64,000 bases of DNA, taken from the NCBI GenBank assembly GCA_020637365.1, contig JACJWE010000002.1, positions 280,499 to 344,498 of the forward strand. The letters run 5' to 3'. Below, one piece after another: positions 1,186 through 59,594 of this stretch. The notes below the pieces were generated by a model. It was given only the letters and a program-made list of their open reading frames with translations, was not told the DNA's origin and searched no databases. The stretch is from Acidimicrobiia bacterium. GTDB lineage: Bacteria; Actinomycetota; Acidimicrobiia; IMCC26256; JAGNEX01. Position 1 is the first letter of the stretch. Every line of letters begins with the position of its first letter. The translations under genes were made by a program, and so were the position numbers.

Positions 1186-2433
1186 TTACTCCTCGATCTG
1201 AAACGCTTCGTTGAAAGCGTCGAGAGTCGGCGCGATGGTAGCGGTCGGCCCCACCACCGGTTGCACAGCCTCAAGGGTCTTCAGGCCATGACCGGTGACA
1301 TAGGCAACAACCTTCTCATCGGGCCGGATCACACCCTGTTCGGTCAGTGTCTTCAGGGTCGCGATCGTGACGCCAGCGGCGGTTTCACCGAAGATGCCCT
1401 CGGTCTCGGCCAACAGGCGGATACCCTCCACGACCTCATCATCGCTGATCGCAGCCATCCCGCCGCCGCTTTGACGAACGACGTCGAGAGCGAAATAACC
1501 GTCGGCCGGGTTGCCGATCGCTAGGGATTTGGCGATCGTGTTCGGCTTCACGGGTTTGATCGTGTCGGTGCCTTCGAGGAACGCCGTCGCGACTGGTGAA
1601 CAACCTTCTGAATCGGCCCCCGACATACGCACGTCGGCGGGACCATCGATAAGGCCGACCTTGACGAGCTCTTCAAACCCCTTCTTGATCTTGGTGAGCA
1701 GCGAGCCGGACGCCACCGGAACGACGCAGTGATCGGGCAGCTGCCAGCCAAGCTGTTCGACGGTCTCATAGGCGAGAGTCTTTGAGCCCTCGGCATAGAA
1801 CGGACGCACGTTGACGTTGACGAACGCCCAGGGATACGTGCCAGCGAGCTCGGCGCAGAGACGATTGACGTCGTCGTAGGAGCCGTCGATCGCCACCAGG
1901 TTGCCACCGTAGACAGCCGACGTGGTGACCTTGCCCGCCTCCAGATCGGAGGGGATAAACACATAGGAGTCAAGGCCAGCGTGAGCGGAATGCGCAGCGA
2001 CGGAGTTGGCGAGGTTGCCCGTGCTGGCGCATGCCGCTGTCTTAAACCCGAAGTTGACAGCCTTCGACAAAGCGACCGTCACGACTCGATCCTTGAACGA
2101 GTTGGTCGGATTGAGTGTGTCGTTCTTGATCCACAGGTCGCTGAGCCCCAGCACTTCGCCGAGACGGTGAGCGCGAACCAGCGGGGTGAACCCGGCCCCC
2201 ATATCGATCAGCGGCTCCCGCGGCGTGGGCAGCAACGGCTCGTAGCGCCAGATCGATGACGGGCCCGCTGCAATCGATTCGCGGGTGATCACCGATGCGA
2301 TCGCGTCATAGTCGTAGGCGACCTCTAAAGGCCCGAAGCACCACTCACAAACGTGAATCGGGGCGATTTCATATTCGTGTCCGCACTCTCGACATCGAAG
2401 CGCGCGCACAAAGTCGGCATGCGTTGCAGCCAT
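1186..2433 (-). CDS. Threonine-synthase-like PLP enzyme with an N-terminal Cys4 zinc ribbon. Possibly a MetM-type homocysteine-forming enzyme.
   Basis: 415 aa. It has CRECGHEYEIAPIHVCEWCFGPLEV followed by the ThrC-family fold (NPTNSFKDR PLP-lysine motif). It is preceded by a SAM-I riboswitch and followed by the GG-carrier gene. Confidence 0.85.
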   Translation of the reverse strand: MAATHADFVRALRCRECGHEYEIAPIHVCEWCFGPLEVAYDYDAIASVITRESIAAGPSSIWRYEPLLPTPREPLIDMGAGFTPLVRAHRLGEVLGLSDLWIKNDTLNPTNSFKDRVVTVALSKAVNFGFKTAACASTGNLANSVAAHSAHAGLDSYVFIPSDLEAGKVTTSAVYGGNLVAIDGSYDDVNRLCAELAGTYPWAFVNVNVRPFYAEGSKTLAYETVEQLGWQLPDHCVVPVASGSLLTKIKKGFEELVKVGLIDGPADVRMSGADSEGCSPVATAFLEGTDTIKPVKPNTIAKSLAIGNPADGYFALDVVRQSGGGMAAISDDEVVEGIRLLAETEGIFGETAAGVTIATLKTLTEQGVIRPDEKVVAYVTGHGLKTLEAVQPVVGPTATIAPTLDAFNEAFQIEE

Positions 2434-2516
2434 AGCGGTATCTCTCCTCGTGGTTACGGCATTACGTAGTTCCGCTGCGCTCTGATCGAGCCGTCCACGA
2501 GCTGGCTGCTCGCTGA

Positions 2517-2662
2517 GCTCATCGTTCAGGCATTGGCACCATGCTGCAGCCGGCCCCGTCCCTCACCGCTCGGAGATTGCTCCTACACTGGCTCGGGCCG
2601 ATTCCGTATGCGCTGGTTGCCGCGGCGTCGTCGGGCCTGTCCCTCGACCGCTCTCGATGAGC
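2517..2662 (-). promoter_or_regulatory. SAM-I (S-box) riboswitch aptamer in the leader of the ThrC-like/carrier operon
   Basis: Minus-strand RNA: GCUCAUC-GAGAGCGGUCGAGGGACAGGCCCGACGACGCCGCGGCAACC...(long P3)...GGUGCCAAUGCCUGAAC-GAUGAGC. P1 (GCUCAUC/GAUGAGC), the GAGGGA...GGCCC kink-turn/P2 core, GCAACC and GGUGCCAAU all match the SAM-I consensus. Downstream, CUCGUGG can pair with CCACGAG abutting the GAGGAG SD. Confidence 0.8.
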
Positions 2663-2720
2663 GCATTGGTTCGGTAGATGGTGCCATGCCGCCAAGGACA
2701 GAACAAACCGCTTCCCAAAG

Positions 2721-3676
2721 TTGTTCATGCCAGTACACCGACGCGCCGACGATCCTGATGTTCGCCCCACCGCCACAGATGGTGGCCTCGGCGCGTCGCG
2801 CCGTTCTCTACCACCGCAGGCCCGACCTACCGTCTCGGTCATCATCCCATGTCAGAACGAGGCTCCGACCGTCGCCGCCATCGCCTCGTGCATTCGTCGT
2901 GAACTCGTCGAACGTGAACAACTCGTCGACGAGGTCATCGTCATGGACGATGGATCCACCGACGACACTGCAGCTGTCGCCGCTGCGGCGGGCGCCAAAG
3001 TCATCGCGGTCGACTCGGTACTGCCAGAGCTGATCGCCGGATCCGGCAAAGGGAACGTGCTGTGGAAGTCCCTATTCGCCAGCTACGGCGACGTCATCTG
3101 TTGGGTGGACGGCGACATCCGCAACTTTGAAGCGCACTTCGTCCGCAATCTGATCCTGCCCTCATCGACGATCCAACCCTCTGCTTCGTCAAGGCCTACT
3201 ACCAGCGTCCCTACGAAAACCTGCCCCAAGGGGGCGGACGTGTCACCGAGTTGGTGGCCCGGCCGATGATCTCGCGGTACTTCCCCGAACTCTCCGGGAT
3301 CCGCCAGCCACTCTCCGGCGAATACGCGGGACGACGCAGCGCGCTCGAAGCGGTGCCTTTCGTCGAAGGTTGGGGCGTCGAGATGGGGCTACTCATCGAT
3401 ATTGCTCGCGAGTTCGGCGTCGAATCGATTGCTCAGGCCGACCTGGGGGTGCGACGGCACCGAAACCGAGCCCTCCACGAACTCACACCGCAGGCAGCGG
3501 CGATTATCAACGTAATGTTGCGCCGAGCAGGGTGCGAGGCCACCGGTCAGAGCGAACAGGTCGTCCGGCTGCTACCCGACGGGAGTCTGGAGTGGGTTCC
3601 GGTAGAAAGTCGTGAACGCCCGCCAGCAGCCTCGGTCCAACAACCGAGCGCCTGCGCCGAACGCCCCACCTCCTAA
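2721..3676 (+). pseudogene. gpgS: Glucosyl-3-phosphoglycerate synthase, split by an apparent 1-nt frameshift at C-run 3159-3161. This may be an assembly error.
   Basis: ORF 2721..3269 carries VSVIIPCQNEA...VMDDGSTDDT...GKGNVLWKS...WVDGDI (GT-A/GT81). ORF 3251..3676 carries GGGRVTELVARP...LSGEYAGRR...GWGVEMGLLID...HRNR. One extra C restores NLILPLIDDPTLCFVKAYYQRP. Confidence 0.8.
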
Positions 3677-3678
3677 GA

Positions 3679-3770
3679 GGGTCAGCGGTAGGGACTGACC
3701 CGACTGATGCTCGGTTGTGCATGTCCCGCTCATGCAGCTTGCGCTGCGGGGCGCTCGGGCCACGGCTCGG
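3679..3770. repeat. Conserved intergenic element, copy A (hairpin GGGTCAG-N9-CTGACCC plus core CGCTCATGCAGCTTG-N8-GGCGCTCGG)
   Basis: It shares an identical 15-nt core with 14136-14150 and 20957-20971, and aligns over about 90 nt with copy B. It lies between convergent genes, just after the stop of the minus-strand transporter gene. Confidence 0.8.
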
Positions 3771-3776
3771 CGCCAT

Positions 3777-5177
3777 TTACGTCGCCGTAGTGATCGGCTC
3801 CCCGGTGATGTCGACGCCTTCTTCGGCATCTTTCTTTTCGATCTCGGCTTTTTCTTCGTCCCAAACCGGGTCTTGGCCCAGGACGACACGTCGCCAGAGA
3901 TGACCGCCGATGATCTTGGCGGTGGCGGTCGCAGGTACAGCGATGAGGAGTCCAAAAAACCCGGCGAGCGTGCCTCCGAGCAAGAGTGCGACCATCACCG
4001 CGACAGGGTGCAGATGAACGGTGCGATGCATCACGTACGGACTGATGATGTGGTTGTCGAGCTGTTGGACGACGACCATGACCACGACGACGAGCGCTGC
4101 CTGAACCGGTGTGCCCGTGGTGAGAGCGATCGCCAAGCCGGGGATTCCACCGATCCATGGGCCGATCAACGGGATCATGTTGAACAGGCCAGCGATCATT
4201 CCCACGACCAGCCACAGGTCGAGGCCGATGAGCCATAGACCGATCGAGGACATGATCCCCACCACCAGAGCGACAAAGAGCTGACCTCGGAAAAACCCAC
4301 CGACCGCCGAGCCGATGTGACGTGCCATATACACGATGTCTCGATCCATGGGTGAGGGCAACAAATCGAGCGAGATCTGACGCAAACGGGGCAGATCGAT
4401 CAGGAAGTAGAACGCAAAGATCGGGGCGAGGACCAAAATGAGCAGTACATCAACCACCCGGGAACCAATTTCGCGAGCCGTCGCGATCTGATCGCCGACC
4501 GAGACGTCGGTGCTTTGCGCCTCGTCGATGATGTCTTGAACGGTCAGATCCAGCGGAGACTTGGCGAGCCATTCATCAGCCTTCGACTCCAGTTCTGAGC
4601 GAAGGCAGATATCGGAATCGTCATCCGAGGTTGAGCCATCCGAGCTCGATGCATCGGTGGTGGTCGCCTCATCCGAAGCCCTGGTGGGCGACGTTGTCAC
4701 AGTGGAACGTCGGGCGGCCGTAGTGGTTGGAGTAGCGCCGTCAGCTTCGGAATCGGTCTCATCGGGTGTGTCGTGACACTCCCACGATTTGGAGAGTTCA
4801 TCGACCTGGTGGGTGATCATCGGGCTGACGAGCAAAATGATCAGCACCAAACCGAGGAGAACCCCCAGATACGCGACCCCTGTCCCGACGAGACGGGGCA
4901 AGCCCCGGCGGTGCAGGAACGACACGATCGGGTTCAACAAAAAGACCAACGCGCCAGCGATGATCAACGGCGGAAGGATCGGCGCAAAATGCCAAAAGAT
5001 CCAGACGATCGCGCCGGTCGCGGCCAAGATGCCCACGATCGCCCAAGCGACTCTGCCGATTCGCATGATCCGATCCGACGCGGTTTCTTGGTCCTCTTGA
5101 CTCCCGTTCATCTCTGCCTGGTCAGCGGGTACTGATCCACCGTCTGGGTCGGCTGAAACATGTCGGTCCGAGCTCAC
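3777..5177 (-). CDS. AI-2E family (PerM/YhhT-like) transporter with a low-complexity acidic/Ser/Thr insertion
   Basis: 466 aa with multiple TM segments. The pattern ...FAPILPPLIIAGALVFLLNPIVSFLHRRGLPR... and a C-terminal LLIAVPATATAKII are typical of the family. Confidence 0.75.
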   Translation of the reverse strand: MSSDRHVSADPDGGSVPADQAEMNGSQEDQETASDRIMRIGRVAWAIVGILAATGAIVWIFWHFAPILPPLIIAGALVFLLNPIVSFLHRRGLPRLVGTGVAYLGVLLGLVLIILLVSPMITHQVDELSKSWECHDTPDETDSEADGATPTTTAARRSTVTTSPTRASDEATTTDASSSDGSTSDDDSDICLRSELESKADEWLAKSPLDLTVQDIIDEAQSTDVSVGDQIATAREIGSRVVDVLLILVLAPIFAFYFLIDLPRLRQISLDLLPSPMDRDIVYMARHIGSAVGGFFRGQLFVALVVGIMSSIGLWLIGLDLWLVVGMIAGLFNMIPLIGPWIGGIPGLAIALTTGTPVQAALVVVVMVVVQQLDNHIISPYVMHRTVHLHPVAVMVALLLGGTLAGFFGLLIAVPATATAKIIGGHLWRRVVLGQDPVWDEEKAEIEKKDAEEGVDITGEPITTAT

Positions 5178-7484: not shown

Positions 7485-8717
7485 TCAAAGGTCTCCGGTG
7501 ATCGATCCGCTGGCGGGGGCCGCGTTTCGTTGGCGAGCGACCTCGACGCAGACGATCGCGGTCGCCACCGACACATTGAAACTTTCCATCCCGTTGTACA
7601 TCGGAATCGATACGAGCGCGTCGCATCGACGTTTCGTGAGGGTGCTCAATCCGTCGCCTTCGCTCCCCGCCACGATGACGACGGGGGCGGTGTCAAAACG
7701 GACCTGGTCATATGTTGACCCGCCGTCGCCCGCGAGGCCGTAGCTCCAGATGCCGCGCCGTTTCATATCGTCGAGGAAGGACGGTATTCCCGAGACGAGC
7801 GCGATGGGCAGCTTCTCGGCCGCGCCCGCCGCGGCTTTCATCGCCGACGCGCTGAGCCGAGCGGTTCGTTTCTTGGGCAGGACCAGACCGGTTGCACCCG
7901 CCGCGCATGCACTGCGCATAACAGCACCGAGATTCCCTGGGTCGGTGACGCCATCCAGAGCTACCAGAAACGCAGATGGGTCCTCACACAAGGCGTCAAG
8001 TGCCGTTGCTTCGATCGGCGTCGCCCTCGCTTGGACGCCTTGTGGCGTCTGGGATTGCGCCACATTGGAGAACGTCGTCCGAGTGACGGTCCGCACGCTG
8101 ACTCCGCGCTCATACGCTTTGACCATGAGCGCCTCGACATCGGGGTCGTCGGCGCGCAACCCATCGACGGTCAGCTCGATAACTCGTCGATCACCCGACA
8201 ACAGCGCGTCGACCGCCTGTATGCCTTCGACGAGATCACCTCCGATGCCGCCAACGCCGTCGGAGGACCGGCGACTACCGCTGCGAGCCCCGCGACCGAG
8301 ACGTTCACCTTCGCGCGTTCGCACGGATTGTTTGCCAGAACCCTTCGGGGCTCGTTGCGTCGATCGCGTCGATCGTTGCGCTGACCCCGACGTCGCCGTT
8401 ATACCAGCGCCTGGTCGGCTCCCACGCGACACCTGCGCGCCGCCGTGCTGACCTTGACCCGGTTTGGACTTGGTCGACTTGGCCTGACTCGACCTGGACT
8501 GGCCGAACTGCCCCGCGCCCGATTGCCCTGCACCCGATTTCCCTGCGCCCGATTTTCCCGCGCCGGATTTCCCTGCGCCGGATTTCCGCTGGTCGGAGCT
8601 ACCCGGCTTGGCTCTGCCCTGACCAGAGCGGCTCTGGGCGCTCTTTTGTTTGGTTGGACGACCTGGTTTGCCTCGGCTCGTGCCGCCGCCCGGTCCTCCT
8701 GAACGTCGTCCGCCCAT
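7485..8717 (-). CDS. rlmB: TrmH/SpoU-family 23S rRNA 2'-O-methyltransferase (RlmB-like) with a long Gly/Ser/Lys-rich repetitive N-terminus
   Basis: The C-terminal half (FLVALDGVTDPGNLGAVMRSA...IPMYNGMESFNVSVA) is the SpoU methylase domain. The start is taken at ATG 8717, because the longer ORF start overlaps cysS. It sits downstream of cysS, as in other actinobacteria. Confidence 0.8.
   Translation of the reverse strand: MGGRRSGGPGGGTSRGKPGRPTKQKSAQSRSGQGRAKPGSSDQRKSGAGKSGAGKSGAGKSGAGQSGAGQFGQSRSSQAKSTKSKPGQGQHGGAQVSRGSRPGAGITATSGSAQRSTRSTQRAPKGSGKQSVRTREGERLGRGARSGSRRSSDGVGGIGGDLVEGIQAVDALLSGDRRVIELTVDGLRADDPDVEALMVKAYERGVSVRTVTRTTFSNVAQSQTPQGVQARATPIEATALDALCEDPSAFLVALDGVTDPGNLGAVMRSACAAGATGLVLPKKRTARLSASAMKAAAGAAEKLPIALVSGIPSFLDDMKRRGIWSYGLAGDGGSTYDQVRFDTAPVVIVAGSEGDGLSTLTKRRCDALVSIPMYNGMESFNVSVATAIVCVEVARQRNAAPASGSITGDL
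8511..8585. repeat. 15-bp tandem repeat x5 (encodes (K/Q)SGAG pentapeptides) in the rlmB N-terminal region
   Basis: Units are ccccgcgcccgattg / ccctgcacccgattt / ccctgcgcccgattt / tcccgcgccggattt / ccctgcgccggattt. Confidence 0.9.
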
Positions 8718-14062: not shown

Positions 14063-14086
14063 CAGATGCCTTCGCGTTTGCCTAAC

Positions 14087-14180
14087 AGGTCAGCGAATAG
14101 GACCGACCTCATCGAATGCTTGGTTGCGTCATACCCGCTCATGCAGCTTGTGGTGCAGGCCGCTCGAGCTATGCCCCGGC
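14087..14180. repeat. Conserved intergenic element, copy B (hairpin AGGTCAG-N9-CCGACCT plus core CGCTCATGCAGCTTG-N8-GCCGCTCGA)
   Basis: It shares a 17-nt identity (cccgctcatgcagcttg) with copy A and is colinear with it over about 90 nt. It occupies the radA-disA spacer. Confidence 0.8.
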
Positions 14181-14196
14181 CTATCCGCGGGGACAC

Positions 14197-15561
14197 TTAG
14201 CTGACCGAGGCCGCCAGCGGCCCGACAAGCCCCGCCGAACGCAGGGCATCCCTCAGTGTAGCGATTTGGATCACTGGTGAGTCCTCGACCCCAACACCCG
14301 ACTTTGACCCCAGCAGCTTGGTATAGCCGAGCCGTTGAGCTTCGGCGAGTGCCCGTTCGGATCCTGAGGTTGGGCGGACATCGCCGACGAGATCCAGTTC
14401 ACCGCAAGCCGCCAACCCTGCCCAAACGCTCCGGCCGCGACGCGCGCTGGCCAGGGCTAGGGCGAGAGCCAGGTCCGCGTCGGGCGCGCTGACCCGGATT
14501 CCGCCCACGACAGACGCGTACACGTCACAAGCAGCGAAATCGACTCCACCGTGTTGTTCGAGGATAGCGATGATCATGTTGAGTCGCCCGGCGTCGATCC
14601 CTTGACTCATGCGGCGCGCGGCGGGCGACGGAGTCACCAGCGCTTGCACTTCGATCAGAACCGGTCGCGCCCCCATGGTCACCGCCCCGATCACCGATCC
14701 GGGACGAGGCTGTTCTCCTCGTTCGGTCGATCCTGAGGGCTGACATAGCGGGAGCAGTCCGGCCGTACCCATCGAGAAGATCCCCACCTCGTGTGTAGAA
14801 CCAAACCGATGTTTGTGTGCCCGAAGGAGTCGGACGCTTTGGGTGCGGTCACCTTCGAAGGCGAGCACGGTGTCGACGACGTGCTCGAGAACACGGGGGC
14901 CGGCGAGGCTCCCCTCTTTGGTGACGTGACCGACCATGACAACAGCGGGTCCAGAGTTCTTGGCGAGTGCTGTCAAGCGTTGGGCACACCCTGCGACCTG
15001 GGCAACCGAACCCGGAACACCCGCACAGTCTGGATGCGCCATCGTTTGAATGGAATCGACCACGACCACGTCTGGTGAAAACGCCGAGATCTGATCGAGT
15101 GCATGTGCGAGTGATGTCGCTCCGAGCACAGAGATCCCCGCCGTGTTGACCCCTAAGCGATCGGCGCGCAGTTTGACCTGTTTGGGGGATTCTTCACCGC
15201 AGACCAACAAGCAACGATGCCCCAGCGCTGCGAGCGAGCCGAGCATCTGCAACGTCATCGTGCTCTTGCCGATTCCAGGCTCACCGCCCAGCACCGTCAC
15301 CGAACCGGGGACGAGGCCCCCGCTGAGCACCCGGTCTAACTCGCTCATGCCCGTCGGTGTCGGGACGGCGTCGAGCAGGGAAACCTCGGCGAGCGGCACG
15401 ACGCCTTCACCGGTGATGCCGACGTGCTGTTCAGACTCGACCGGACCCACTTGAGTCTGTTCCAGTGAGCCCCATGTACCACAGTCGCTGCAGCGCCCGT
15501 GCCACTGCGGTGTTTGCGCTCCGCAGTGGGTGCATTCGAAAACGATCGCTGTCTTGGCCAT
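14197..15561 (-). CDS. radA: DNA repair protein RadA/Sms
   Basis: It has an N-terminal zinc finger (CTHCGAQTPQWHGRCSDCGTW), a Walker A (GGEPGIGKST), the KNRFG-like HKHRFG motif and a Lon-like C-terminus. Confidence 0.95.
   Translation of the reverse strand: MAKTAIVFECTHCGAQTPQWHGRCSDCGTWGSLEQTQVGPVESEQHVGITGEGVVPLAEVSLLDAVPTPTGMSELDRVLSGGLVPGSVTVLGGEPGIGKSTMTLQMLGSLAALGHRCLLVCGEESPKQVKLRADRLGVNTAGISVLGATSLAHALDQISAFSPDVVVVDSIQTMAHPDCAGVPGSVAQVAGCAQRLTALAKNSGPAVVMVGHVTKEGSLAGPRVLEHVVDTVLAFEGDRTQSVRLLRAHKHRFGSTHEVGIFSMGTAGLLPLCQPSGSTERGEQPRPGSVIGAVTMGARPVLIEVQALVTPSPAARRMSQGIDAGRLNMIIAILEQHGGVDFAACDVYASVVGGIRVSAPDADLALALALASARRGRSVWAGLAACGELDLVGDVRPTSGSERALAEAQRLGYTKLLGSKSGVGVEDSPVIQIATLRDALRSAGLVGPLAASVS

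Positions 15562-16628: not shown

Positions 16629-16654
<26 letters not shown>
15704..16654 (-). CDS. Hypothetical lipoprotein with a C-terminal TM anchor and a poly-Arg tail
   Basis: It has a lipobox (AVSALSGC), a C-terminal TM (ALWVAIGAFLVLIAALIW) and the tail ...RRAPNFRRRRRRLFR. The true start is probably downstream of 16654, since that ORF start overlaps the clpC1 3' end. Confidence 0.55.
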
Positions 16655-19112
<2,458 letters not shown>

Positions 19113-20200: not shown

Positions 20201-20887
20201 GTGGGTGAGGTCATGAGTTGGGTTTGGGGAGTACCCGCATTTCTTTTGGGTGCGATGTGGTGGACCGTCTGGGAGTACGGCCTTCACCGCTTCATGTTTC
20301 ACGAACGGCGCGGACGCAACCTCGGATCGCGCCTGCACCTCGACCACCATGCCCGGGCCACCTGGATCTTTGATCCGCACATACTCCTGGCGTGGTTCGG
20401 AGTTTTGCTGACGGGCGTCGGCTGGGCGTGGGCCGCAACGCAGGTGTCGTCATTGCTGCTCGATGTCGTCGGCACAGATAAGCGGGACGGGTTAGCCAGT
20501 TCGATCGGCATTGGCTTTGGTGCCGGCTGGACGGTCCACTACTTCTTCTATGAGTGGCATCACCGAGCGGCGCATCTGCGCGCACCCAAGAATCGATGGG
20601 AGCGGTTCGTGCGCAAACACCACCTCCATCACCACTTTGGTCACCCGATGCGAAATCAGGGGGTGACGGTCAACTGGTGGGATCGCGTCGCTGGCACGCT
20701 GGACCAGCCCGATGTCGTTCGGGTTCCCCGGCGGTTGGCACCACGCTGGATGCTCGACACAAACGGTGAGATCCTTGCAGCGTTCCGAGACGATTACATA
20801 CTGATCGGACAGGCCGTCGTGACAGCTCCCGACAAAGCCGCCGAAGACCACGACCGCGCCTACGCGAATCTCGTCCCTCTCCCGTAA
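20201..20887 (+). CDS. Fatty acid hydroxylase / sterol desaturase superfamily membrane protein
   Basis: It has histidine boxes HRFMFH, HLDHH, EWHHRAAH and HHLHHH, plus hydrophobic segments. Confidence 0.75.
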   Translation: MGEVMSWVWGVPAFLLGAMWWTVWEYGLHRFMFHERRGRNLGSRLHLDHHARATWIFDPHILLAWFGVLLTGVGWAWAATQVSSLLLDVVGTDKRDGLASSIGIGFGAGWTVHYFFYEWHHRAAHLRAPKNRWERFVRKHHLHHHFGHPMRNQGVTVNWWDRVAGTLDQPDVVRVPRRLAPRWMLDTNGEILAAFRDDYILIGQAVVTAPDKAAEDHDRAYANLVPLP

Positions 20888-20924
20888 CCCTCTCCAACGC
20901 CACCTGATCGCCCCAGTTGATTGG

Positions 20925-21000
20925 ATGACGTCTCGGCGGCGTTGCCGCACAAATCGCGCTCATGCAGCTTGAGCGCCGCGCCGCTCGACACAGCCCGCTT
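20925..21000. repeat. Conserved intergenic element, copy C (core CGCTCATGCAGCTTG-N8-GCCGCTCGA, with a partial second core gctatgcagct at 21002-21012)
   Basis: It has the identical 15-nt core and the second block. It lies just after the stop of the minus-strand protease gene. Confidence 0.75.
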
Positions 21001-21010
21001 CGCTATGCAG

Positions 21011-21460
21011 CTAGAACTCGAGGGTGAAGCGTCGGTCTTCGCCTTCGAGACAGAGCCGAGCGCGACCCAAGACGTCCATACCGATCCGGGCACCGACGTC
21101 ATCGTCGCCGGCGAAGCCAGCCAAAACAGGAAGCTCAAAAAAGAACTCTTGTGCAGGGGCCCCGAGGCCGAGCTCGATCATGACCTGGGCAGCAAATCCC
21201 TGACCTTGTGCGGTGTGTACCGCCACCAAACCATGGGGATGCAGGCCCAGCCTTTCGGCGTATTCGGGTCGGATCTGGGTGCGGGCCGATGCGGTATCGA
21301 TCACGGCGCGACAGTGGACAGGGCGACCGACCTCGTTACCGACCTCTTCGCACGCCCCCTGTTCGGATGCGCTCATGGCGATGCGCACGGTGAGCAGCGG
21401 CCCGCGCTCTGTTACCGGACCCACAAGCGTGATAAAGCCTGGTTCGAACTCGGGGGCCAT
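21011..21460 (-). CDS. Retropepsin-like (clan AA) aspartic protease family protein
   Basis: 149 aa. AVIDTASARTQIRPEYAERLGL (a D-T/S-G-A-type motif, here DTAS) and ARIGMDVLGRARL resemble the small archaeal/bacterial retropepsin-like proteins. Confidence 0.6.
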   Translation of the reverse strand: MAPEFEPGFITLVGPVTERGPLLTVRIAMSASEQGACEEVGNEVGRPVHCRAVIDTASARTQIRPEYAERLGLHPHGLVAVHTAQGQGFAAQVMIELGLGAPAQEFFFELPVLAGFAGDDDVGARIGMDVLGRARLCLEGEDRRFTLEF

Positions 21461-25284: not shown

Positions 25285-27141
25285 TCATCGAAGGGCCTCC
25301 CCACCGCCAGGGCTTGCGACATCAGGGCTTGCAACATCAGGGCTTGCAACATCAGGGCTGGCAGCGTCGACATGACCGCTCGGAGCCGGAGCGGCCGCCG
25401 GAGCGGCCGCCTGAGCACTCGCTGCGTCCCCGCCATCCGGTTCGCTGTTGGATAGCGGTGCGAACCGCGGTGCCGGAGCCTCAGATGCCCCACCAAGACC
25501 TGCTCGTCGAGCGCGCCGCAACAAGAACCGCCCCAACAACTCAGGATCCGTCTCGGGGTAGTCGCGTCGAGTTTGCGAACCGCGTGATTCCAAACGAGCG
25601 GTCGCCGCGGCGACGACCAGAGCGCCATAGGCTGCCAGATTGGCAAGTTCGAGGAGCGCGACCGACGGGACACCACCCAACGCCAATCTCGCCTCGACGC
25701 GCCGACCGGTCTCATCGAGTACGGCTCGTGCGTTGGCCAGCGAACCGGCATCCCGCAGCACGCCCGCCCCCGCGGTCATACCGTGTTGGAGCGTGCGTCG
25801 AGCAACGGCGACCGCAGCATCATCGGCGAGATCCTCAGACAGTGAGGGTGGGCCTCCCAGCGGCGCGGGATCGCTCGAATCGCCTGGAGCGACTCCGACT
25901 GCATCGGCTTCGAACACCAGTCGCATGGGACCGCTCGGCTCGGGACCGTCGATTCCTGAGACGATGGCCTCGGCGACCCGGTTGCCGAATACCAAACCCT
26001 CCAGCAACGAATTGGATGCGAGTCGGTTGGCGCCGTGCACACCCGAACACGCGACCTCGCCACACGCCCAGAATCCGGGGATCGACGTCGCTCCGTTGAG
26101 GTCGGTCACAACCCCGCCACAGGTGTAGTGAGCGGCGGGAGCCACCGGCAACCAGTCGTTGTTCGGGTTCAGGCCGACCGCGTGGCACGCATTCCAAATC
26201 GTGGGAAAACGGCGATCAAAGTCTCGAATACCCGTACCGTCGAGCCACAAATGATCGAGATCGGACCCTTCGAGCCGTTCAGAAATCGCGCGGGCGACCA
26301 CGTCGCGGGGAGCGAGGTCCGCCATTGGATGCACCGACGCCATGAACGCGTCGCCGTTCTGATCCCGCAATACCGCCCCTTCGCCGCGCAGCGCCTCTGA
26401 GAGCAGCGGTCGAGGCATCGACTCGTGGTGCAGTGCTGTTGGATGGAACTGCACAAACTCGGTGTCGGCGAGGACGGCCCCCGCCCGCCAAGCCATCGCC
26501 AAGCCATCACCGGTTGATGCCAGCGGATTAGTCGTCACCGCGTACAGCTGACCGGCGCCACCCGAGGCGAGTACGACGTGCGCCGCACGAATCTCGGTGA
26601 GTTCACCCTCGTTGGTGCGCATCCGAAGGCCGACGCATCGGCCGCCTTCGATCAACACATCGAGCCCGAACCACCCGTCGAGCACCGGAACCCCCGCAGC
26701 AGAGAGGGCCATGACGAGCGTGTGTTCCATCTCACGGCCAGTGGCGTCACCGCCAGCATGAAGGATCCGAGCGACCGAATGCCCGCCCTCCCGAGTCAAC
26801 GCCGGTTCTTCACTTCGGCCAACACGGTCAAAACGTGCGCCGAGATCGAGTAGTTCCAGGACACGCTCTGGTCCCTCGGTCACCAGGGTTCGCACAGCGT
26901 CGGGGTCGGCGAGACCACCGGCGACGGTCATGGTGTCTCGCCAGTGCAGATCGGGATCATCTTCGGGACCGATCGCGGCGGCGACACCGCCCTGAGCAAA
27001 CCACGTAGCGCTCCCCCCGAAGGGAACCTTCGTGACGAGGACGACGCCGAGACCAGCACCGAGGGCCCGCCTAGCAACGCTCAAACCAGCTATCCCGGTA
27101 CCGAGTACGAGCACATCGGTGGTCTGTGGAGCGCCGATCAT
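25285..27141 (-). CDS. nadB: L-aspartate oxidase with a C-terminal low-complexity extension of about 75 aa
   Basis: DVLVLGTGIAGLSVA (FAD site), ...RFDRV..., HYTCGGV, GANRLASNSLLEG. The start is taken at ATG 27141, which forms an ATGA overlap with the panC stop. The tail contains DVASP x3. Confidence 0.93.
   Translation of the reverse strand: MIGAPQTTDVLVLGTGIAGLSVARRALGAGLGVVLVTKVPFGGSATWFAQGGVAAAIGPEDDPDLHWRDTMTVAGGLADPDAVRTLVTEGPERVLELLDLGARFDRVGRSEEPALTREGGHSVARILHAGGDATGREMEHTLVMALSAAGVPVLDGWFGLDVLIEGGRCVGLRMRTNEGELTEIRAAHVVLASGGAGQLYAVTTNPLASTGDGLAMAWRAGAVLADTEFVQFHPTALHHESMPRPLLSEALRGEGAVLRDQNGDAFMASVHPMADLAPRDVVARAISERLEGSDLDHLWLDGTGIRDFDRRFPTIWNACHAVGLNPNNDWLPVAPAAHYTCGGVVTDLNGATSIPGFWACGEVACSGVHGANRLASNSLLEGLVFGNRVAEAIVSGIDGPEPSGPMRLVFEADAVGVAPGDSSDPAPLGGPPSLSEDLADDAAVAVARRTLQHGMTAGAGVLRDAGSLANARAVLDETGRRVEARLALGGVPSVALLELANLAAYGALVVAAATARLESRGSQTRRDYPETDPELLGRFLLRRARRAGLGGASEAPAPRFAPLSNSEPDGGDAASAQAAAPAAAPAPSGHVDAASPDVASPDVASPDVASPGGGEALR
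25311..25370. repeat. 15-bp tandem repeat x3-4 (encodes D(V/A)ASP pentapeptides) in the nadB 3' extension
   Basis: Units are ggcttgcgacatcag / ggcttgcaacatcag / ggcttgcaacatcag / ggctggcagcgtcga. Confidence 0.9.
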
Positions 27142-34503: not shown

Positions 34504-35160
34504 CTACCGACCAATCGCGGCGTGGGTCATCAAACTCATCGCCTCGGCCCGGGTTGCTGCGTTCGTTTCAAAGACGCCCCGAACCGACGATGTCACCGTG
34601 CGCGAACCGGGTTTGCGAACCCCCCGCATCGACATGCAGAGGTGTTCTGCTTCGATGACGACGAGCGATCCCGCAGGCGCCAGCCGGTCCTCGATCGCCT
34701 CGACGATCTGGGTGGTTAAACGTTCCTGGACCTGGGGCCGTTTCGCAAAGGTATCGACCATCCGAGCCAGTTTGGAGAGACCGGTAATTCGGCCGGATTC
34801 GCCGGGGATATAGGCGACGTGGGCGGCACCGAAAAAGGGCGCAAAATGGTGTTCGCACATCGAGTACATCGGAATATCGCGCACCATCACGATTTCGCGA
34901 TGAGACTCCTCGAACTGAACGTTTAGGTGCGCGGCTGCATCGGTGTGAAGACCAGAAAAGATCTCCTCGTACATTTCCGCGATGCGGCGCGGCGTCTGCG
35001 CTAAACCGTCGCGCTCAGGGTCCTCACCGATAGCGAGAAGAATCTCCCTGACAGCGGCCTGGATGCGCGGCTTGTCGATCATTGCTGCCACCATCTCCTC
35101 AAAAGCATCAGCGGACAGAAACTGGCGTGCTCGGCGTTCGGCTGCGGTATCCCCGCTCAT
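34504..35160 (-). CDS. folE: GTP cyclohydrolase I
   Basis: ...[12 protein letters not shown]...[20 protein letters not shown]...GLSK. The start is taken at the internal ATG 35160. Confidence 0.93.
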
Positions 35161-35259
35161 GACGCGTTTGCGGCGGTCGCTCAACCCCGGTCGCGGGCAC
35201 ACGCCGAGTTTGGCCCGCATCCCGGAACTGGATCATGGACGACAGGGCGATGGAGCCGC

Positions 35260-37178
35260 CTATGACAGGTCGTCGGACTCGTCAGGGAACATTGCCGTCG
35301 GCGCCGTTGCCGAGGTGATCACACCATCGACCGCACCGTTGTTCAACGCTGCGGGTGCCACATGACCCGACGTCCACGGCGTCACCGTCGCAAAGAGGCG
35401 TTCGACCTCTTCTCGTTCGATCGTTTCGTCAGCGATGAGATGTTCAGCGAGCTGGTCGAGCACTTCGTGATAGTGGGTGAGGATGTTCCGTGCCGTCGAA
35501 TGCGCCTGCTCCATCAACAAGCGCACTTCGCTGTCGATGCGGGCTGCCACCTCGTCGGAATAGTCCGGCTGGGAGGAGAAGTCACGGCCGAGGAACACCT
35601 CGCCATCGCCGGACTGGCCAAAGCGGATCGGGCCGAGCGCGTCGCTCATACCGAACTCGGTCACCATCTGGCGAGCGATGCTCGTCGCCTTTTGAATGTC
35701 GTCCTGCGCACCGGTCGTCGGCTCTTCGAAAATCAGCTCTTCGGCGGTACGTCCGCCGAGCATCATCGCCAAACGATCGCGAAGTTCAGAGCGAGTGACC
35801 AGGTAGCGATCTTGTTCGGGCAGCGTCAGCGTCCAACCGAGGGCACGACCGCGGGGAATGATCGAAATTTTGTGAACCGGGTCGGCGTGCGGAAGGGCGT
35901 GTCCAACGAGGGCGTGGCCGCCTTCGTGAAAGGCGATCACGCGCTTTTCTTCTTCGGACATGACACGGCTCTTGCGCTCAGGGCCAGCCATCACCCGGTC
36001 GATCGCCTCTTCCATGTCGGCGGTCGTCACCAACGAACGACCCTCGCGCGCGGTGAGCAATGCCGCCTCGTTCATCAGGTTCGCGAGGTCTGCACCGGTG
36101 AAACCGGGCGTCCGTCGGGCAATGATGTCGAGGTCGACGCTCGGGTGCAGCGGTTTGCCCTTTGAATGCACCTCAAGGATCGCGCGACGACCCTTGAGGT
36201 CGGGCCGGTCGACGACGATCTGACGGTCAAATCGACCCGGACGCAACAAGGCAGGGTCGAGGATATCGGGACGGTTGGTCGCAGCGATCAGGATGACGCC
36301 TGAATTGGTGTCGAATCCGTCCATCTCAACGAGCAACTGGTTGAGCGTTTGTTCACGTTCGTCGTGACCACCGCCGAGTCCGGCTCCTCGATGACGGCCG
36401 ACAGCATCGATCTCGTCAACGAAAACGATCGCGGGGGCGTTCGCCTTTGCCTGCTCAAACAGGTCGCGGACTCGGCTCGCTCCGACACCGACGAACATCT
36501 CGACGAAGTCTGAACCCGAGATCGAAAAGAAGGGGACACCAGCTTCACCAGCGACGGCCCGAGCGAGGAGCGTCTTACCGGTCCCCGGAGGCCCGAAGAG
36601 CAACACGCCCTTGGGAATCTTGGCGCCCATCTGTTGGAATTTGCCGGGATCGGCCAGGAAATCGCGAATCTCTTTGAGCTCTTCGACCGCTTCGTCGGCA
36701 CCGGCGACGTCCGCGAAGGTCACCTCGGGAGCGTCCTTATTGGCCATCTTGGCGCGTGCCTTGCCGAAACTCATCACACGGGACGAGCCGCCCTGCATCT
36801 GGTTCATCACGAAAAAGAAGATGCCGACGATGAAGAGGAAGGGCAACAGGTTGAACAGCAGGCTCACCCAAATGTTGTCGCTGTCCTTGGTCGTCGTGAT
36901 GTCTTTGACATCGTTGTTGACGAGCAATTCGCGGTAGTACTCAGTCGAGTCACCCGGAATGTCGACCCGGTAGTCCTGATCGTCGGTCGTCGTCCCCTTA
37001 ATCGTCGGACGTACCGTACGATCGACGATCTCCGCTTTGTCGATCTGGCCTTCGGAGATCTTCTGCTCAAACTCGACCAGGGTGAATTCTTCGGGCTCGT
37101 CGCTCTGATTGACGGTTTGGGAGCGATGAAGCCAAGCACCAGAGCCACAGCGACCCAAATGCCCGGGCGCGTTTCCAC
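35260..37178 (-). CDS. ftsH: ATP-dependent zinc metalloprotease FtsH. The N-terminal TM1 lies in another frame, with an apparent 1-nt indel at 37116-37118.
   Basis: [11 protein letters not shown], the SRH region, HEGGHA zinc site and TM2 ([18 protein letters not shown]) are present. TM1 ([16 protein letters not shown]) starts from GTG 37178 and is encoded in the -1 frame relative to the rest. Confidence 0.93.
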
Positions 37179-47710: not shown

Positions 47711-48741
47711 CCACATTGCTCTTTCGACATGGTTTAGGTCCCAGCGCCGTCGCCAAAACAGCGAAAGCGGCTGGTCTGGTCACCGTTGCGGTGATCAGCG
47801 GTGTCGTGGGGATGATCATCATGTTGTTGTCCCCTCAGCTCTCGGGGACTGCACCGCTGTTCAAGATTGCTGCGGTCGGCCACTCGACCGCTCAGGGAGC
47901 GCCATCGGATGTGGTGTGGGCCCTGATCGTGGGCTCTGACCACCGCGTCGGCCGACCCGACGTCTACGGCGACGCCGTCGATGGGGCACGCGGCGATGCT
48001 CTGCACCTCGTCGGGATCAACGTCAAAGAGCAACACGCGACCATGCTCAATATTCCCCGAGACACCGTCGCTCAGATCCCAGGGCATGGCGAAGGGCGCA
48101 TCAACACCGGACTGACCTACGGCGGTCTCGAAGGTCAAGCTGAAGCGGTCACCAATCTGACCGGAATCCCGGTCGACTACGTCGTATCGGTCGATTTTGA
48201 CCAATTCCTGAGCGTCGTCGACTCCCTCGGCACGATCACCGTCGACGTTCCCTATGGAATGGACGACCCGGCGTCTGGGGCGGCGTTCCTGCCCGGTGAA
48301 AACGAGTTCAACGGTGGTCAGGCGCTGGCATTTTCACGCAATCGAAAAAGCCTGCCGTGCGATGGAATCCCCGAGCGGTGTGGTGACTGGGGCCGGACGA
48401 TGAACCAGGCACAGTTGATCATCGAGACGCTCCGCGAGATTCAAGGCCGCGGCGCGAGCATCACCGAAACGATCACCCTGGTCCAGATGTTCCTGGCCCA
48501 CGGTACGTATACAGGCATGTCGTCGACCGAGCTCTACCGCCTCGGTCGACTCGCGCTCGAACTCGACCCCGACAGCATCGACTCGTTCTTGTTGCCATCT
48601 GAATCAGGTCGCCTCGGCTCGGCGTCCGTGGTGCGCACCACGGGGGCAGCGGCAGGCCTTCTCGCAGATATGGCTGATGATGGCATCGTGCAAAGCGACG
48701 AGTACGTCCGCTTCGTCGGCGGACGCTTCCAGGGACTGTAG
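47707..48741 (+). CDS. LytR-CpsA-Psr (LCP) family cell-wall glycopolymer transferase
   Basis: It has an N-terminal TM, then ...GDALHLVGINVKEQHATMLNIPRDT...NTGLTYGG...FSRNRKS. Confidence 0.85.
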   Translation: MTTLLFRHGLGPSAVAKTAKAAGLVTVAVISGVVGMIIMLLSPQLSGTAPLFKIAAVGHSTAQGAPSDVVWALIVGSDHRVGRPDVYGDAVDGARGDALHLVGINVKEQHATMLNIPRDTVAQIPGHGEGRINTGLTYGGLEGQAEAVTNLTGIPVDYVVSVDFDQFLSVVDSLGTITVDVPYGMDDPASGAAFLPGENEFNGGQALAFSRNRKSLPCDGIPERCGDWGRTMNQAQLIIETLREIQGRGASITETITLVQMFLAHGTYTGMSSTELYRLGRLALELDPDSIDSFLLPSESGRLGSASVVRTTGAAAGLLADMADDGIVQSDEYVRFVGGRFQGL

Positions 48742-48755
48742 GTTCACGGTCTCAC

Positions 48756-51023
48756 ATGTCTGATGTGCGATCTGTCCTCGAACGGCTAGCTGCGGAAGCA
48801 ACGGGCCGGGGGGTCGATGTCACCGTCTTGCCCGTACCCGGACGTATCGCACGATACGGATCGATCGACGGCGGCCTCGCCGCTCCGGTCGAAGCATTTC
48901 TCGAACGCCGCGGCATCGCCAACCTCTATGGGCATCAGGTCACCGCTGTCGAAGCGCTGCGCTCCGGCCAACACGTCGTGCTCGCGACCGGCACCGCATC
49001 GGGCAAATCACTCGCGTACCAAATTCCGATCGCCGAAGCAGCCCTCGACACGACGCCAGCGACGGCACTGTGCCTGTTTCCCACCAAGGCGCTTGCGGCC
49101 GACCAACTGCAATCGTTTCGCTCGATGCTCATCCCCGAGGTCGGCGCCTACAGCTACGACGGTGACACGCACCCAGACGAACGCGCATGGGTCCGCCAAC
49201 ACGCCAATGTGCTGTTGACCAACCCCGACATGTGCCACCGTGCGATCCTGCCCGCACACCGACGTTGGGCCACCTTTCTGATGCGGCTGCAGTTCATCGT
49301 GATCGACGAGCTGCATTCGCTTCGCGGTGTCTTCGGCAGCCATGTCAGCCATGTTGTGCGCCGGCTTTTGCGGCTGTGCGACCAGTACGGGTCCAAGCCA
49401 ACCATCTGCTTTACGTCGGCAACTATCGGCAATCCGGGCGAGCTCGCCGAGACCATCGCAGCGGTGTCCGTCGACGTGATTGCCGATGACGGTTCACCCC
49501 GCCCCGACTCAGATCTCGCACTGTGGAGGCGACCACGACCCATCGACGGCAGCGCCATCCCAAGTGCTGATATCGAGGTAGCGCGCCTGCTGGGAAGTTT
49601 CGCCGCCGAAGGTCATCGAGCATTGGCGTTCGCTGGTTCACGACGCAATGCCGAATCGATCGCAGCCCAAGCGCAACAGATGTTTCGCGACGACAAAGAG
49701 CGGATTGCCGCATATCGAGGTGGCTTTCTTCCCCAAGAACGACGTGAATTGGAAGACCACTTCCGCGATGGTTCGCTGCGCGCACTCGCTGCCACAAACG
49801 CTCTCGAACTCGGTATCGATATCCCCGGTCTCGACGCCGTCATCCTCAACGGATTTCCCGGAACGATTGCGTCGCTCCGTCAACAGATCGGGCGTGCCGG
49901 GCGACGCGATACGCCATCGGCTGCGATCGTGGTCAACGGAGACGATCAGCTCGACGCGTGGTACTTCGACCATCCGGAGCAGTTCATCACCCGGAGCCCG
50001 GAACCCGCTGTTGTGAACCCTTCCAACCCGCGGATGTTGCGAGCGCATGTCGCTTGCGCCGCTGCCGAACTGCCGCTGACACCGGCCGACCGAGATCGAT
50101 TCGGTGACGATCTCGACGATGTCGTCACCGATCTTGTGCGTGACGATCTCTTGCTGGTTCGCGGGCGCGAGCTCATCTGGGCACCCTCATGGTCACCCGC
50201 TGCCGAAGTCGATCTGCGGTCCGGCGGCGGAGGGGAGGTCCGACTTCGATGTATCGACGGACCCGAACCGGTGCTGGTCGGAACGATCGATGCAGGGCGC
50301 GCCCCGCTCGGCGTTCACCCGGGTGCGGTCTATGTCCATCAGGGCCGTCACTACCGGGTCGCCACCCTCGACCTCGAGAGCCGATATGCCGAACTGGTCA
50401 CAGTGGACGGCTCGGAGTACACCCAAGCCCGTCAGTCCAGTGAGATCGCGATCGTCGAGATCGACGAAGTTCGCCGCTACGGCACATTCAGCCACGCGGT
50501 TGGAACCGTCGAGGTCGAGTCATGTGTCACCGGATATCAGGTTCGAGACCGGGCCACCCGCGTCGTCTTGGACACGGTGACACTCGACCTGCCTCCCCAG
50601 CGGCTCACCACACGCTCATCATGGATCGTGATCGACCCATCCGTCGTTGAACTCCTCGACTTCGGCACCGAAGAGACCCTGTCGGCAATGCATGCCATCG
50701 AACACGCGATGATTGGCATGTTGCCGCTCTTCGCGATCTGCGATCGATGGGACGTTGGAGGGCTATCAATGTCGGACCACCCCGAAACCCTCGCGCCCAC
50801 CCTGTTTATCTACGACGGATATCCCGGTGGTGCGGGTATCGCCGATGTGGCCTTCAGTCGCGGTATCAGCCACGTGCGAGCCACCCACGATCTAGTCACG
50901 TCGTGCGGGTGCGAGGCGGGCTGTCCAAGCTGTATCCAATCACCCAAATGCGGTAACTGGAACGAGTTCCTCGACAAGAGCGCGGCCGTCGCACTACTCG
51001 GGGAGATCCTGCGAACCTTGTAG
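48756..51023 (+). CDS. DExH-box helicase with a C-terminal DUF1998 Cys4 module (MrfA / Rv3649-like)
   Basis: GTASGKSLAY (motif I), VIDELHSL (DExH), QQIGRAGRR (motif VI) and the C-terminal CGCEAGCPSCIQSPKCGNWN. Confidence 0.9.
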   Translation: MSDVRSVLERLAAEATGRGVDVTVLPVPGRIARYGSIDGGLAAPVEAFLERRGIANLYGHQVTAVEALRSGQHVVLATGTASGKSLAYQIPIAEAALDTTPATALCLFPTKALAADQLQSFRSMLIPEVGAYSYDGDTHPDERAWVRQHANVLLTNPDMCHRAILPAHRRWATFLMRLQFIVIDELHSLRGVFGSHVSHVVRRLLRLCDQYGSKPTICFTSATIGNPGELAETIAAVSVDVIADDGSPRPDSDLALWRRPRPIDGSAIPSADIEVARLLGSFAAEGHRALAFAGSRRNAESIAAQAQQMFRDDKERIAAYRGGFLPQERRELEDHFRDGSLRALAATNALELGIDIPGLDAVILNGFPGTIASLRQQIGRAGRRDTPSAAIVVNGDDQLDAWYFDHPEQFITRSPEPAVVNPSNPRMLRAHVACAAAELPLTPADRDRFGDDLDDVVTDLVRDDLLLVRGRELIWAPSWSPAAEVDLRSGGGGEVRLRCIDGPEPVLVGTIDAGRAPLGVHPGAVYVHQGRHYRVATLDLESRYAELVTVDGSEYTQARQSSEIAIVEIDEVRRYGTFSHAVGTVEVESCVTGYQVRDRATRVVLDTVTLDLPPQRLTTRSSWIVIDPSVVELLDFGTEETLSAMHAIEHAMIGMLPLFAICDRWDVGGLSMSDHPETLAPTLFIYDGYPGGAGIADVAFSRGISHVRATHDLVTSCGCEAGCPSCIQSPKCGNWNEFLDKSAAVALLGEILRTL

Positions 51024-51029
51024 CGCCGG

Positions 51030-51494
51030 TCAAGATGGGGCCATCGGTATCGACTCCGTGCCTGCGGGACCGTTGCCTGCGGGACCGTTGCCTGCGAGTC
51101 CGTTGCCTGCGAGTCCGTTGCTGGCGAGACCGTTGCCAGCTCCGTCACGAGACAGTTCGGCTTGTGCCCGAGCTCGAAGGGTGCGGGCGATTCCGCCGAT
51201 TCGAAGCTGCGTCGAAATGATGACCCTGGTACCGAACTGTCCACACTCGAACTGTTCGAGCGTTGCGTCGTACTCGGTGAGCACCGTACGGGCGGCCGCC
51301 TGTGCGCTCGCACAGTTCGACTCATCGGCGACCACTCCTGCCGCAGCGAGGGCTGCGATATCTGCCGCTGTTTGAGTACGCGCCTTGGTTGCTGAAACCC
51401 GGGTGAGCGTCGCGATCCACATCATCGACACCACGACAACAGCGACGATGCCCGCACCAAGAACCGTGATGGACCCTTGCTCCGCCCGCGCCAT
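51030..51494 (-). CDS. TadE-like protein of the helicase/secretion neighbourhood (Rv3654c-like) with a NG(L/P)AG repeat tail
   Basis: This is the C-terminal 154 aa of ORF 51030..51992. MARAEQGSITVLGAGIVAVVVVSMMWIA is a TadE-type N-terminus. The upstream part of the ORF overlaps the next gene out of frame. Confidence 0.7.
   Translation of the reverse strand: MARAEQGSITVLGAGIVAVVVVSMMWIATLTRVSATKARTQTAADIAALAAAGVVADESNCASAQAAARTVLTEYDATLEQFECGQFGTRVIISTQLRIGGIARTLRARAQAELSRDGAGNGLASNGLAGNGLAGNGPAGNGPAGTESIPMAPS
51061..51135. repeat. 15-bp tandem repeat x5 (encodes NG(P/L)AG pentapeptides)
   Basis: Units are cctgcgggaccgttg x2 / cctgcgagtccgttg x2 / ctggcgagaccgttg. Confidence 0.9.
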
Positions 51495-58016: not shown

Positions 58017-58262
58017 AGGCTCCCCTGCTACCTCTGGTTCTGCCTGCGTGCCCCGCCGTTCAAGCTGCGCGAATCGGGCCTGCCAGATGGCGAATCGACA
58101 GGAAAGAAATCGTCATATCCGGAAAAACACACGAGGCTGCTCAGACACCATCGACCTACACTCGGTCGAGCAACCCCAGCATTCAAAGCAGCCACGCAGC
58201 TGAATGCGGCCAACCGACCCGGCGGGCCCGCACGCCCAGATCGGACTCCAGAGGTACCCAAG

Positions 58263-59434: not shown

Positions 59435-59507
59435 ATCGCACTCAGCGATGCTCGTGCGGGGCCGACAAAATCTGCTGGGGTCGTCCCGCCCGCGGACGCC
59501 AGGCTAG

Positions 59508-59540
59508 GCGGTAGGACAGACCCGCATTGCGCTGCGGCTC
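59508..59540. repeat. Short, internally deleted relative of the conserved intergenic element (copy G)
   Basis: cggtaggacagacccgcattgcgctgcgg versus copy A cggtagggactgacccg[...36 nt...]ttgcgctgcgg. It lies 55-85 nt after the sigma-factor stop. Confidence 0.5.
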
Positions 59541-59594
59541 CAAGATAATCGCGTCGCCGCAGGTAGCAGCCTACGACGACGCCTAGGGTGAATC

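Follow-up and report, generated by a model that had tools for sequence, protein, structure and literature searches.

The stretch of DNA analysed here (the window; 64,000 nt), from an uncultured wastewater member of the Acidimicrobiia, carries four copies of a structured intergenic repeat on its minus strand, and two further copies lie just beyond it. Copy A (3669-3783, minus strand; covariance model score 109.9 bits, nhmmer E 5e-26) lies behind the TAA stop (3777-3779) of an AI-2E-family transporter gene, and its 3' hairpin adjoins the stop (3674-3676) of a convergent glycosyltransferase gene. Copy B (14077-14203, minus strand; 88.5 bits) occupies the spacer between radA (stop 14197-14199) and disA (start 14062). 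The diverged copy C (20900-21013, minus strand; 78.8 bits) comes after the TAG stop (21011-21013) of a retropepsin-like gene of 149 aa, with a convergent fatty-acid hydroxylase gene ending at 20887. Copy D, also diverged (35095-35219, minus strand; 81 bits, nhmmer E 9e-21), lies in the spacer between ftsH (stop 35260-35262) and folE, and its core reads CGCGTCATGAGCGGGG. Just outside the window, copy E (L030 13387-13504, groEL sense) starts 14 nt past the groEL stop, with a single-base difference in the apical loop in one strain, and copy F (L033 20785-20877, glnA sense) starts 16 nt past the glnA stop.

Two minor features adjoin these copies. A terminator-like hairpin followed by a T tract, GATGTCGACGCCTTCTTCGGCATC TTTCTTTT, is present on the + strand at 3807-3830, inside the 3' end of the AI-2E transporter gene; should it act as the terminator of the convergent glycosyltransferase gene, the transcript of the latter would cross copy A antisense. 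The longest folE ORF (34504-35220, minus strand) passes in frame through copy D, and a gene caller could over-extend FolE by ~43 residues through this copy; the likely true start is preceded by GAGGAG.

The 15-mer CGCTCATGCAGCTTG is present exactly three times in the window, in copies A, B and C, and on the + strand only. The string GCTCATGCAGCTTG, which extends to this 15-mer, likewise has three exact occurrences, all on the + strand, compared with a mean of 0.44 matches in dinucleotide shuffles of the window even with two mismatches permitted. The preliminary description had quoted sequences at 3725-3759 (A), 14134-14168 (B) and 20955-20989 (C) and had judged the shared 15-mer to exceed chance; the sequences read exactly as quoted, and the shuffles bear out the judgement. 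A direct-repeat search of the window returned A, B and C as the top family over 65 nt, with identities to A of 75% and 60%. A profile built from these three copies located the fourth in-window copy, D, in the ftsH-folE spacer, which the earlier list of copies had missed, and flanking DNA of the same organism yielded E and F. Thus, six copies are present in the ~100 kb of this Acidimicrobiia genome that was searched, a portion that includes ~36 kb added beyond the window and belongs to one replichore. A covariance model built on the six copies scores them at 53-113 bits, versus a background of 17.6 bits at most in profile and covariance searches that covered 168 kb and another 90 kb of related sequence. 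The best other covariance-model match (48628-48736) falls within coding sequence and is devoid of the core, and it was rejected. The element was recovered in several independent assemblies (ENA, NCBI, Logan) and is therefore not an assembly artefact.

The homologous unit spans ~115 nt, longer than the ~90 nt first proposed. Pairwise identity across the unit is 91% for A-F, 71% for A-B and ~70% for A-E, and copies C and D are 50-60% identical to the rest. Copy F carries a 29-nt internal deletion, and its core is 95% identical to that of A. The spread of identities (50%-91%) corresponds to a range of ages, which is the trace expected of a proliferating repeat. There is no basis for regarding A as the founding copy, as had been suggested; it is one copy among six and is closest to the glnA copy F. 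Two weaker copies had also been proposed, one after the stop of a DEAD-box helicase gene (58040-58080, + strand; CCCCGCCGTTCAAGCTGCGCGAATCGGG) and one after the stop of a sigma-factor gene (59480-59545, minus strand; CCGCAGCGCAATGCGGGTCTGTCCTACCGC). Neither nhmmer nor the covariance model picked up either one (E<10 for the helicase site), and their similarity is patchy and by eye; they are doubtful relics and were left out of the count.

All six copies lie directly downstream of a stop codon, in the orientation of the upstream gene (AI-2E transporter, radA, the 149-aa gene, ftsH, groEL and glnA), in agreement with the rule first noted for fewer sites. The unit starts 0-16 nt past the stop, except for one copy at ~60 nt, rather than 15-75 nt past it as originally described. 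Copies E and F keep to within 14-16 nt of the stop despite an available spacer of 240-300 nt. The neighbouring genes are co-directional at B, D and E, and convergent at A, C and F. GC skew on the + strand is negative throughout the window, and all six copies lie on the leading strand; as they also share one replichore, gene orientation and replication strand are confounded. Two further readings of the stop-proximal position were considered and rejected. The adjacent stops are TAA or TAG in 6/6 cases, but TGA makes up only ~36% of stops (p ~0.07), which does not establish the stop codon as part of the element; and an in-frame read-through extension is at odds with the frame relative to the upstream stop, which differs among A, B and C.

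Since each copy has the same orientation as its upstream gene, it is transcribed within the 3' UTR or intercistronic spacer of that gene. A separate strong terminator hairpin (17 bp, z -5.9) lies downstream of copy E, and another (15 bp followed by UUUGUUU) lies downstream of copy F. The location of E and F upstream of separate terminators shows that the element is 3'-UTR RNA and not the terminator itself. A scan for intrinsic terminators inside A, B and E found none, and the 3' hairpin of the element has a loop of 7-10 nt and a tail such as CUCUU or CUUUC, in contrast to the 3-8-nt loop and U tract of a terminator. The original suggestion of a terminator-associated RNA motif is thus borne out in part. 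The element is a 3'-UTR or intercistronic RNA, transcribed with the upstream gene.

The terminators themselves show two minor peculiarities. The 17-bp hairpin after groEL and copy E (L030 13505-13560; -34.5 kcal/mol) has a tail of just UUAUGUGU, a hint that the terminators of this organism may do without a clean U tract. A short tandem GGCCCGGATC(G) at L033 20590-20625 adjoins the glnE stop beside the bidirectional glnA/glnE terminator.

On the gene-sense strand (minus in the window) the stop codon is followed by a leader of 5-16 nt, block 1 (GCCGRGSC....CCCGAGCG), a 4-nt bulge, an apical hairpin (GCAGC-GNNA-GCUGC), AUGAGCGGG, a variable spacer of ~10 nt, block 3 (CCGAGCAU), a hairpin (GGUCAGU/7-10-nt loop/RCUGACC) and a tail of YUYU-NAGG. 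Copies B and F have a leader in common (TAAG.G..CCG.CG.ATAG) and a 5-bp hairpin that begins 4-5 nt past the stop. The invariant core reads ...CGAGCG...GCAGC-GNNA-GCUGCAUGAGCGGG, and the best-conserved part of the element is its centre rather than its ends. In the central region the CCCG/CGGG stem pairs, and two invariant GAGC strands are opposed as G-C, A.G, G.A and C-G. The central stem-loop of copy A (3721-3763, minus strand), obtained from RNAalifold, RNAfold and pair counts, comprises an outer stem GUGGCCCG/CGGGACAU, the tandem A.G/G.A with C-G and G.U pairs, the 4-nt bulge and the apical hairpin GCAGC-GCAA-GCUGC, and includes the invariant 15-mer (+ strand 3727-3741). The loop proposed earlier, AAGCUGCAU, does not belong to the best fold; a fold with the apical hairpin seated on the CCCG/CGGG stem has better support. 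The 3' hairpin of copy A (3679-3701, minus strand) forms as GGGUCAG(U)-loop-(G)CUGACCC, followed by CUCUU, and the two hairpin sequences first pointed out on the + strand, GGGTCAG-N9-CTGACCC at this position in A and AGGTCAG-N9-CCGACCT at 14087-14109 in B, are both present.

A hand-specified structure of 22 pairs was evaluated over the six copies. Standard pairs occupy 86.7% of the cells, compared with 81.4% in column shuffles (a value reached in 2/500), and the covariation score is 0.188 versus 0.130 in the shuffles (6/500), with double changes at five pairs. Pairing falls to 24-41% when the 3' partner is shifted by 1-3 columns. This covariation support is modest because the structure was derived from the same six sequences. 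A comparison of the two strands is more informative. Counted on the sense strand and on its complement, standard pairs number 21 and 18 in A, 18 and 13 in B, 13 and 10 in C, 16 and 12 in D, 22 and 21 in E, and 12 and 10 in F; the departures take the form of G.U wobbles on the sense strand, whose complements are C.A mismatches. As every copy pairs better in the gene sense, the element is expected to fold as a single strand of that polarity, either the mRNA or the corresponding DNA strand. Single-sequence folding energies are unremarkable (z ~0) except for E (z -3.2), and a comparison of whole-unit folding energies between sense and antisense gave mixed results.

Comparison with relatives provides the evidence for insertion. 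The RadA of the window has an identical counterpart in an uncultured Actinobacteria/Acidimicrobiia MAG (GCA_020439645.1) and in several ENA/Logan assemblies, in which the element is identical as well. Among RadA homologues, the cluster of the species itself is followed by one sister species at 79-80% and then by sequences at 54% or lower; the lineage of this genome is sparsely sampled. In the sister species, all three testable orthologous sites (B, C and F) are empty. Its radA-disA spacer is 18 nt long, and TAG-GCA...CGAAAGCATCT realigns with the window sequence downstream of copy B; its spacer at site C measures 21 nt; and its glnA stop is directly followed by the terminator, with no element between them. 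Searches of ~50 kb of sister-species DNA with nhmmer and the covariance model found no copy. In one outgroup member of the Acidimicrobiia, radA and disA overlap by 4 nt. With three sites empty in the sister species and site B empty in the outgroup as well, the element is a derived insertion in the lineage of the window. The sister lineage could instead have lost its elements, an alternative against which the outgroup arrangement at site B argues. These alignments indicate that the family is probably a lineage-specific, dispersed repeat of the insertion type and not an anciently conserved regulatory motif. Wider searches are consistent with a narrow distribution: the pattern CGCTCATGCAGCTTG-N9-GNCGCTCG had no match in 596 Gb of reference genomes, a looser pattern gave 19 matches in JGI metagenomes that were all chance or coding (e.g. 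SIS-domain genes), and blastn against plasmid and phage collections returned no match to the element.

The element corresponds to no Rfam family, as the preliminary description had anticipated. At the gathering threshold, an Rfam search of the whole window returned a SAM riboswitch and two tRNAs and nothing else; in E-value mode there was no match to copy A at E<=10, and copy E gave solely chance matches to its downstream terminator hairpin. Among known interspersed repeats the element most resembles REP and ERIC, yet it misses a defining feature of each family considered. Like the REP/BIME elements (REPIN) of Enterobacteria and Pseudomonas, which are mobilised by RAYT/TnpA-REP, it is short, non-coding, hairpin-forming and intergenic, is located in 3' UTRs or within operons, is species-specific and transcribed with the upstream gene, and is without terminal inverted repeats or a demonstrable target duplication; in REP the conserved hairpin is the recognition site of the enzyme. 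However, a REP is a single imperfect palindrome of 20-40 nt with a conserved GTAG/CTAC end that usually occurs in inverted pairs or clusters, whereas the present element is ~115 nt long, is found as single units and has two to three hairpins that differ from one another. The family has no GTAG signature; copy E alone shows GTAG ahead of its 3' hairpin.

ERIC (IRU) and Correia/NEMIS elements share with the present family a size of ~100-150 nt, structure, intergenic location, co-transcription and a presence at orthologous sites that varies among close relatives, and they alter mRNA processing and stability. In ERIC and Correia, however, long terminal inverted repeats fold the unit into one long hairpin, whereas consistent ones are absent here. 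A scan of the six copies for terminal inverted repeats, a hallmark of MITEs, found internal hairpins and copy-specific, unshared pairs only, which upholds the earlier statement that the element has none. The multiple dispersed copies (six in ~100 kb) and the presence or absence relative to the sister species (3/3 sites empty) are nevertheless as in a MITE. Correia elements duplicate a TA target, whereas here no more than one or two sites hint at such a duplication. The filled and empty versions of site B permit TA or TARG (TAA-G...TGT-TAG-G), and A shows TAA...TAGG, but the 3' NAGG seems to belong to the element's own consensus; no target repeat is seen at C, D, E or F.

Two other families invite comparison. 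The mycobacterial MIRU are likewise actinobacterial, 46-101 nt long and intergenic, lie between operon genes in the same orientation and touch the upstream stop; but they form tandem arrays and contain small ORFs that overlap the flanking stop and start codons, whereas the present element occurs singly, with no tandem array at any copy, no conserved frame on either strand and a position relative to the upstream reading frame that varies (A, B, C). PATEs, which derive from IS200/IS605, have neither inverted repeats nor target duplications, and show subterminal hairpins, strict strand specificity and an orientation tied to the replication strand, features that recall the present family, in which no target duplication is demonstrable; the difference is that no conserved target tetranucleotide or cleavage motif can be defined here. 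An assignment to integron attC sites, in which R'' (RYYYAAC) and R' (GTTRRRY) core sites flank an imperfect palindrome behind a cassette ORF, was rejected: GTTAGGC occurs just at the 3' end of B, the equivalents being CTTAGGA in A and CTCACGG in F, and the element sits behind core housekeeping genes instead of cassettes.

Taken together, the element is probably, with a fair measure of doubt, a lineage-specific, non-autonomous interspersed repeat of ~115 nt that spread by inserting after stop codons and shares the transcript of the upstream gene. Such a repeat would insert into the short spacer immediately past a stop codon, in the orientation of the upstream gene. By analogy to the recognition of REP by the RAYT transposase, the invariant central hairpin may serve as the handle for a trans-acting copying enzyme. 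In the Pfam-annotated ~70 kb of the ~100 kb (all but window positions ~24000-50000), no transposase gene, RAYT included, was called and no Y1_Tnp domain was found. REPs stabilise upstream mRNA. By-products for the host may be similar to those of REP and ERIC, in that stable 3'-UTR hairpins would shield the upstream mRNA from 3' exonucleases; alternatively, read-through into disA or folE might be attenuated, or terminating ribosomes might be hindered where a hairpin lies within ~15 nt of the stop. In work from 2015 attributed to Liang, Rudd and Deutscher, REPs within ~15 nt of a stop codon reportedly can stall terminating ribosomes. Both the mobilising enzyme and the effect on the RNA are what we infer from these parallels.

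A MITE is not usually best conserved at its centre, and this pattern would be compatible with selection for a role in the host as well; because the centre is better conserved than the ends, a selected RNA or protein-binding function has a low but appreciable probability. We consider it rather unlikely, on balance, that the element is primarily a selected cis-acting 3'-UTR RNA motif with its own RNA-binding protein, RNase or sRNA as the recognising partner. In that case groEL, ftsH, radA-disA and glnA (proteostasis, repair, nitrogen) would be co-regulated through the conserved internal loop and apical hairpin, and dispersal would represent the assembly of a regulon, a scenario to which we give a similarly low probability. 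The best-conserved positions do lie in the middle of the unit, where the two GAGCG strands oppose each other in a symmetric A.G/G.A internal loop and the stems on either side vary in a partly compensatory way; the pairing is specific to the mRNA strand, half of the host genes (three of six) have to do with stress or proteostasis, and E and F reside inside the transcribed 3' UTR, upstream of real terminators. However, the sister species is without the element at the same genes, and the element is therefore dispensable; copies C, D and F disrupt large parts of the fold; and the hosts, which include the AI-2E transporter and the small retropepsin-like gene, have no evident common theme.

It would be a more far-reaching outcome, and we regard it as improbable, that the family represents a new kind of stop-codon-proximal 3'-UTR module. 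This could be either a stop-targeted mobile element without inverted repeats that moves by a single-strand mechanism, or a protein-recognised RNA motif (GAGCG/GAGCG loop plus GNNA hairpin) that links groEL, ftsH, radA-disA and glnA post-transcriptionally.

A small gene on the opposite strand (+ in the window) encoding a peptide of 23-27 aa (MLGxxxPAHAAxAAxRSG) is a reading that we hold to be very improbable. The ATG and the frame are kept over 18 codons in A (MLGCACPAHAACAAGRSG), B (MLGCVIPAHAACGAGRSS) and E (MLGRMMPAHAAVAAERSG), and several of the differences are synonymous. The frame is broken or startless in the other three copies: C has a stop within the core, D shows a 7-nt shift, and the start is deleted in F in spite of the near-identity of its core to that of A. 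A hand count of variable columns in the aligned copies gives 5 at codon position 1, 5 at position 2 and 9 at position 3, a difference without statistical significance. The peptide has no Pfam or NCBIfam match and no promoter consensus, the ORF in B extends 54 codons antisense into radA, and the pairing favours the opposite strand.

A DNA-level site, whether an antisense promoter on the + strand (TTGNNN or an ECF-like GGAC-N18-19-GTT) or a protein-binding array of three direct CGAGC repeats, is likewise very unlikely: on the + strand, A, B and D each contain a GGAC-N18-19-(C)GTT recognisable by eye, and CGAGCG, TGAGCG and CGAGCA recur inside a unit, but E has lost the -10-like GTT and F has a deletion of this region, the pattern is of low information (~20 chance matches per 64 kb by a rough estimate rather than a computation), the asymmetry of G.U versus A.C argues for a single-stranded function, and scans of A, B and E show no sigma-70 consensus, contrary to the antisense promoter first suggested. 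Readings of the core as a K-turn or attC, and of the ECF-like GGAC-N18-GTT as a promoter, were made by eye; they were inconsistent across the copies and were rejected.

Cultured Proteobacteria, Neisseria and mycobacteria are well-known carriers of interspersed intergenic repeats, among them REP, ERIC, Correia and MIRU. The Acidimicrobiia are a large, mostly uncultured actinobacterial class, common in wastewater and soils, and to our knowledge no interspersed intergenic repeat of such a kind has been described in them; our literature searches returned no relevant description of an equivalent element. The present element is a new repeat family of a known general kind, the bacterial interspersed repeat, in a class with none described. 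It provides a clean filled/empty example, at orthologous sites, of a structured repeat colonising the few nucleotides behind the stops of essential genes, where insertion splits formerly coupled gene pairs such as radA-disA. The family may be of use as a strain or species marker and as a natural test of how inserted 3'-UTR hairpins act on operon expression, and it offers a lead to an enzyme that copies repeats without inverted ends. Unless targeting to stop codons or a function in regulation were confirmed, it would add no new category of biology.

Several other features of the region deserve mention. The SAM riboswitch (2516-2663, minus strand; 61 bits) lies upstream of a PALP-domain gene (1186-2433, minus strand; 415 aa), after which comes a gene for a ThiS-like sulfur carrier; the two genes resemble the MetM/MetO homocysteine-synthesis pair of Streptomyces. 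Three tandem arrays of 15-nt units that differ from one another, with 3.7-5.3 copies each, are found at 8511-8587 (CCCTGCGCCCGATTT), 25308-25363 (CAGGGCTTGCAACAT) and 51059-51137 (TGCCTGCGAGACCGT). Judged by its coordinates, the first seems to fall within a SpoU/RlmB-like methylase gene, and the third is located in a long spacer past a gene that ends at 51023. A ClpC-like gene (16629-19112, minus strand) contains a direct repeat of 65 nt (18751-18815 and 18976-19040; 89% identical, 225 nt apart), a similarity that is unusually high for an internal domain repeat.
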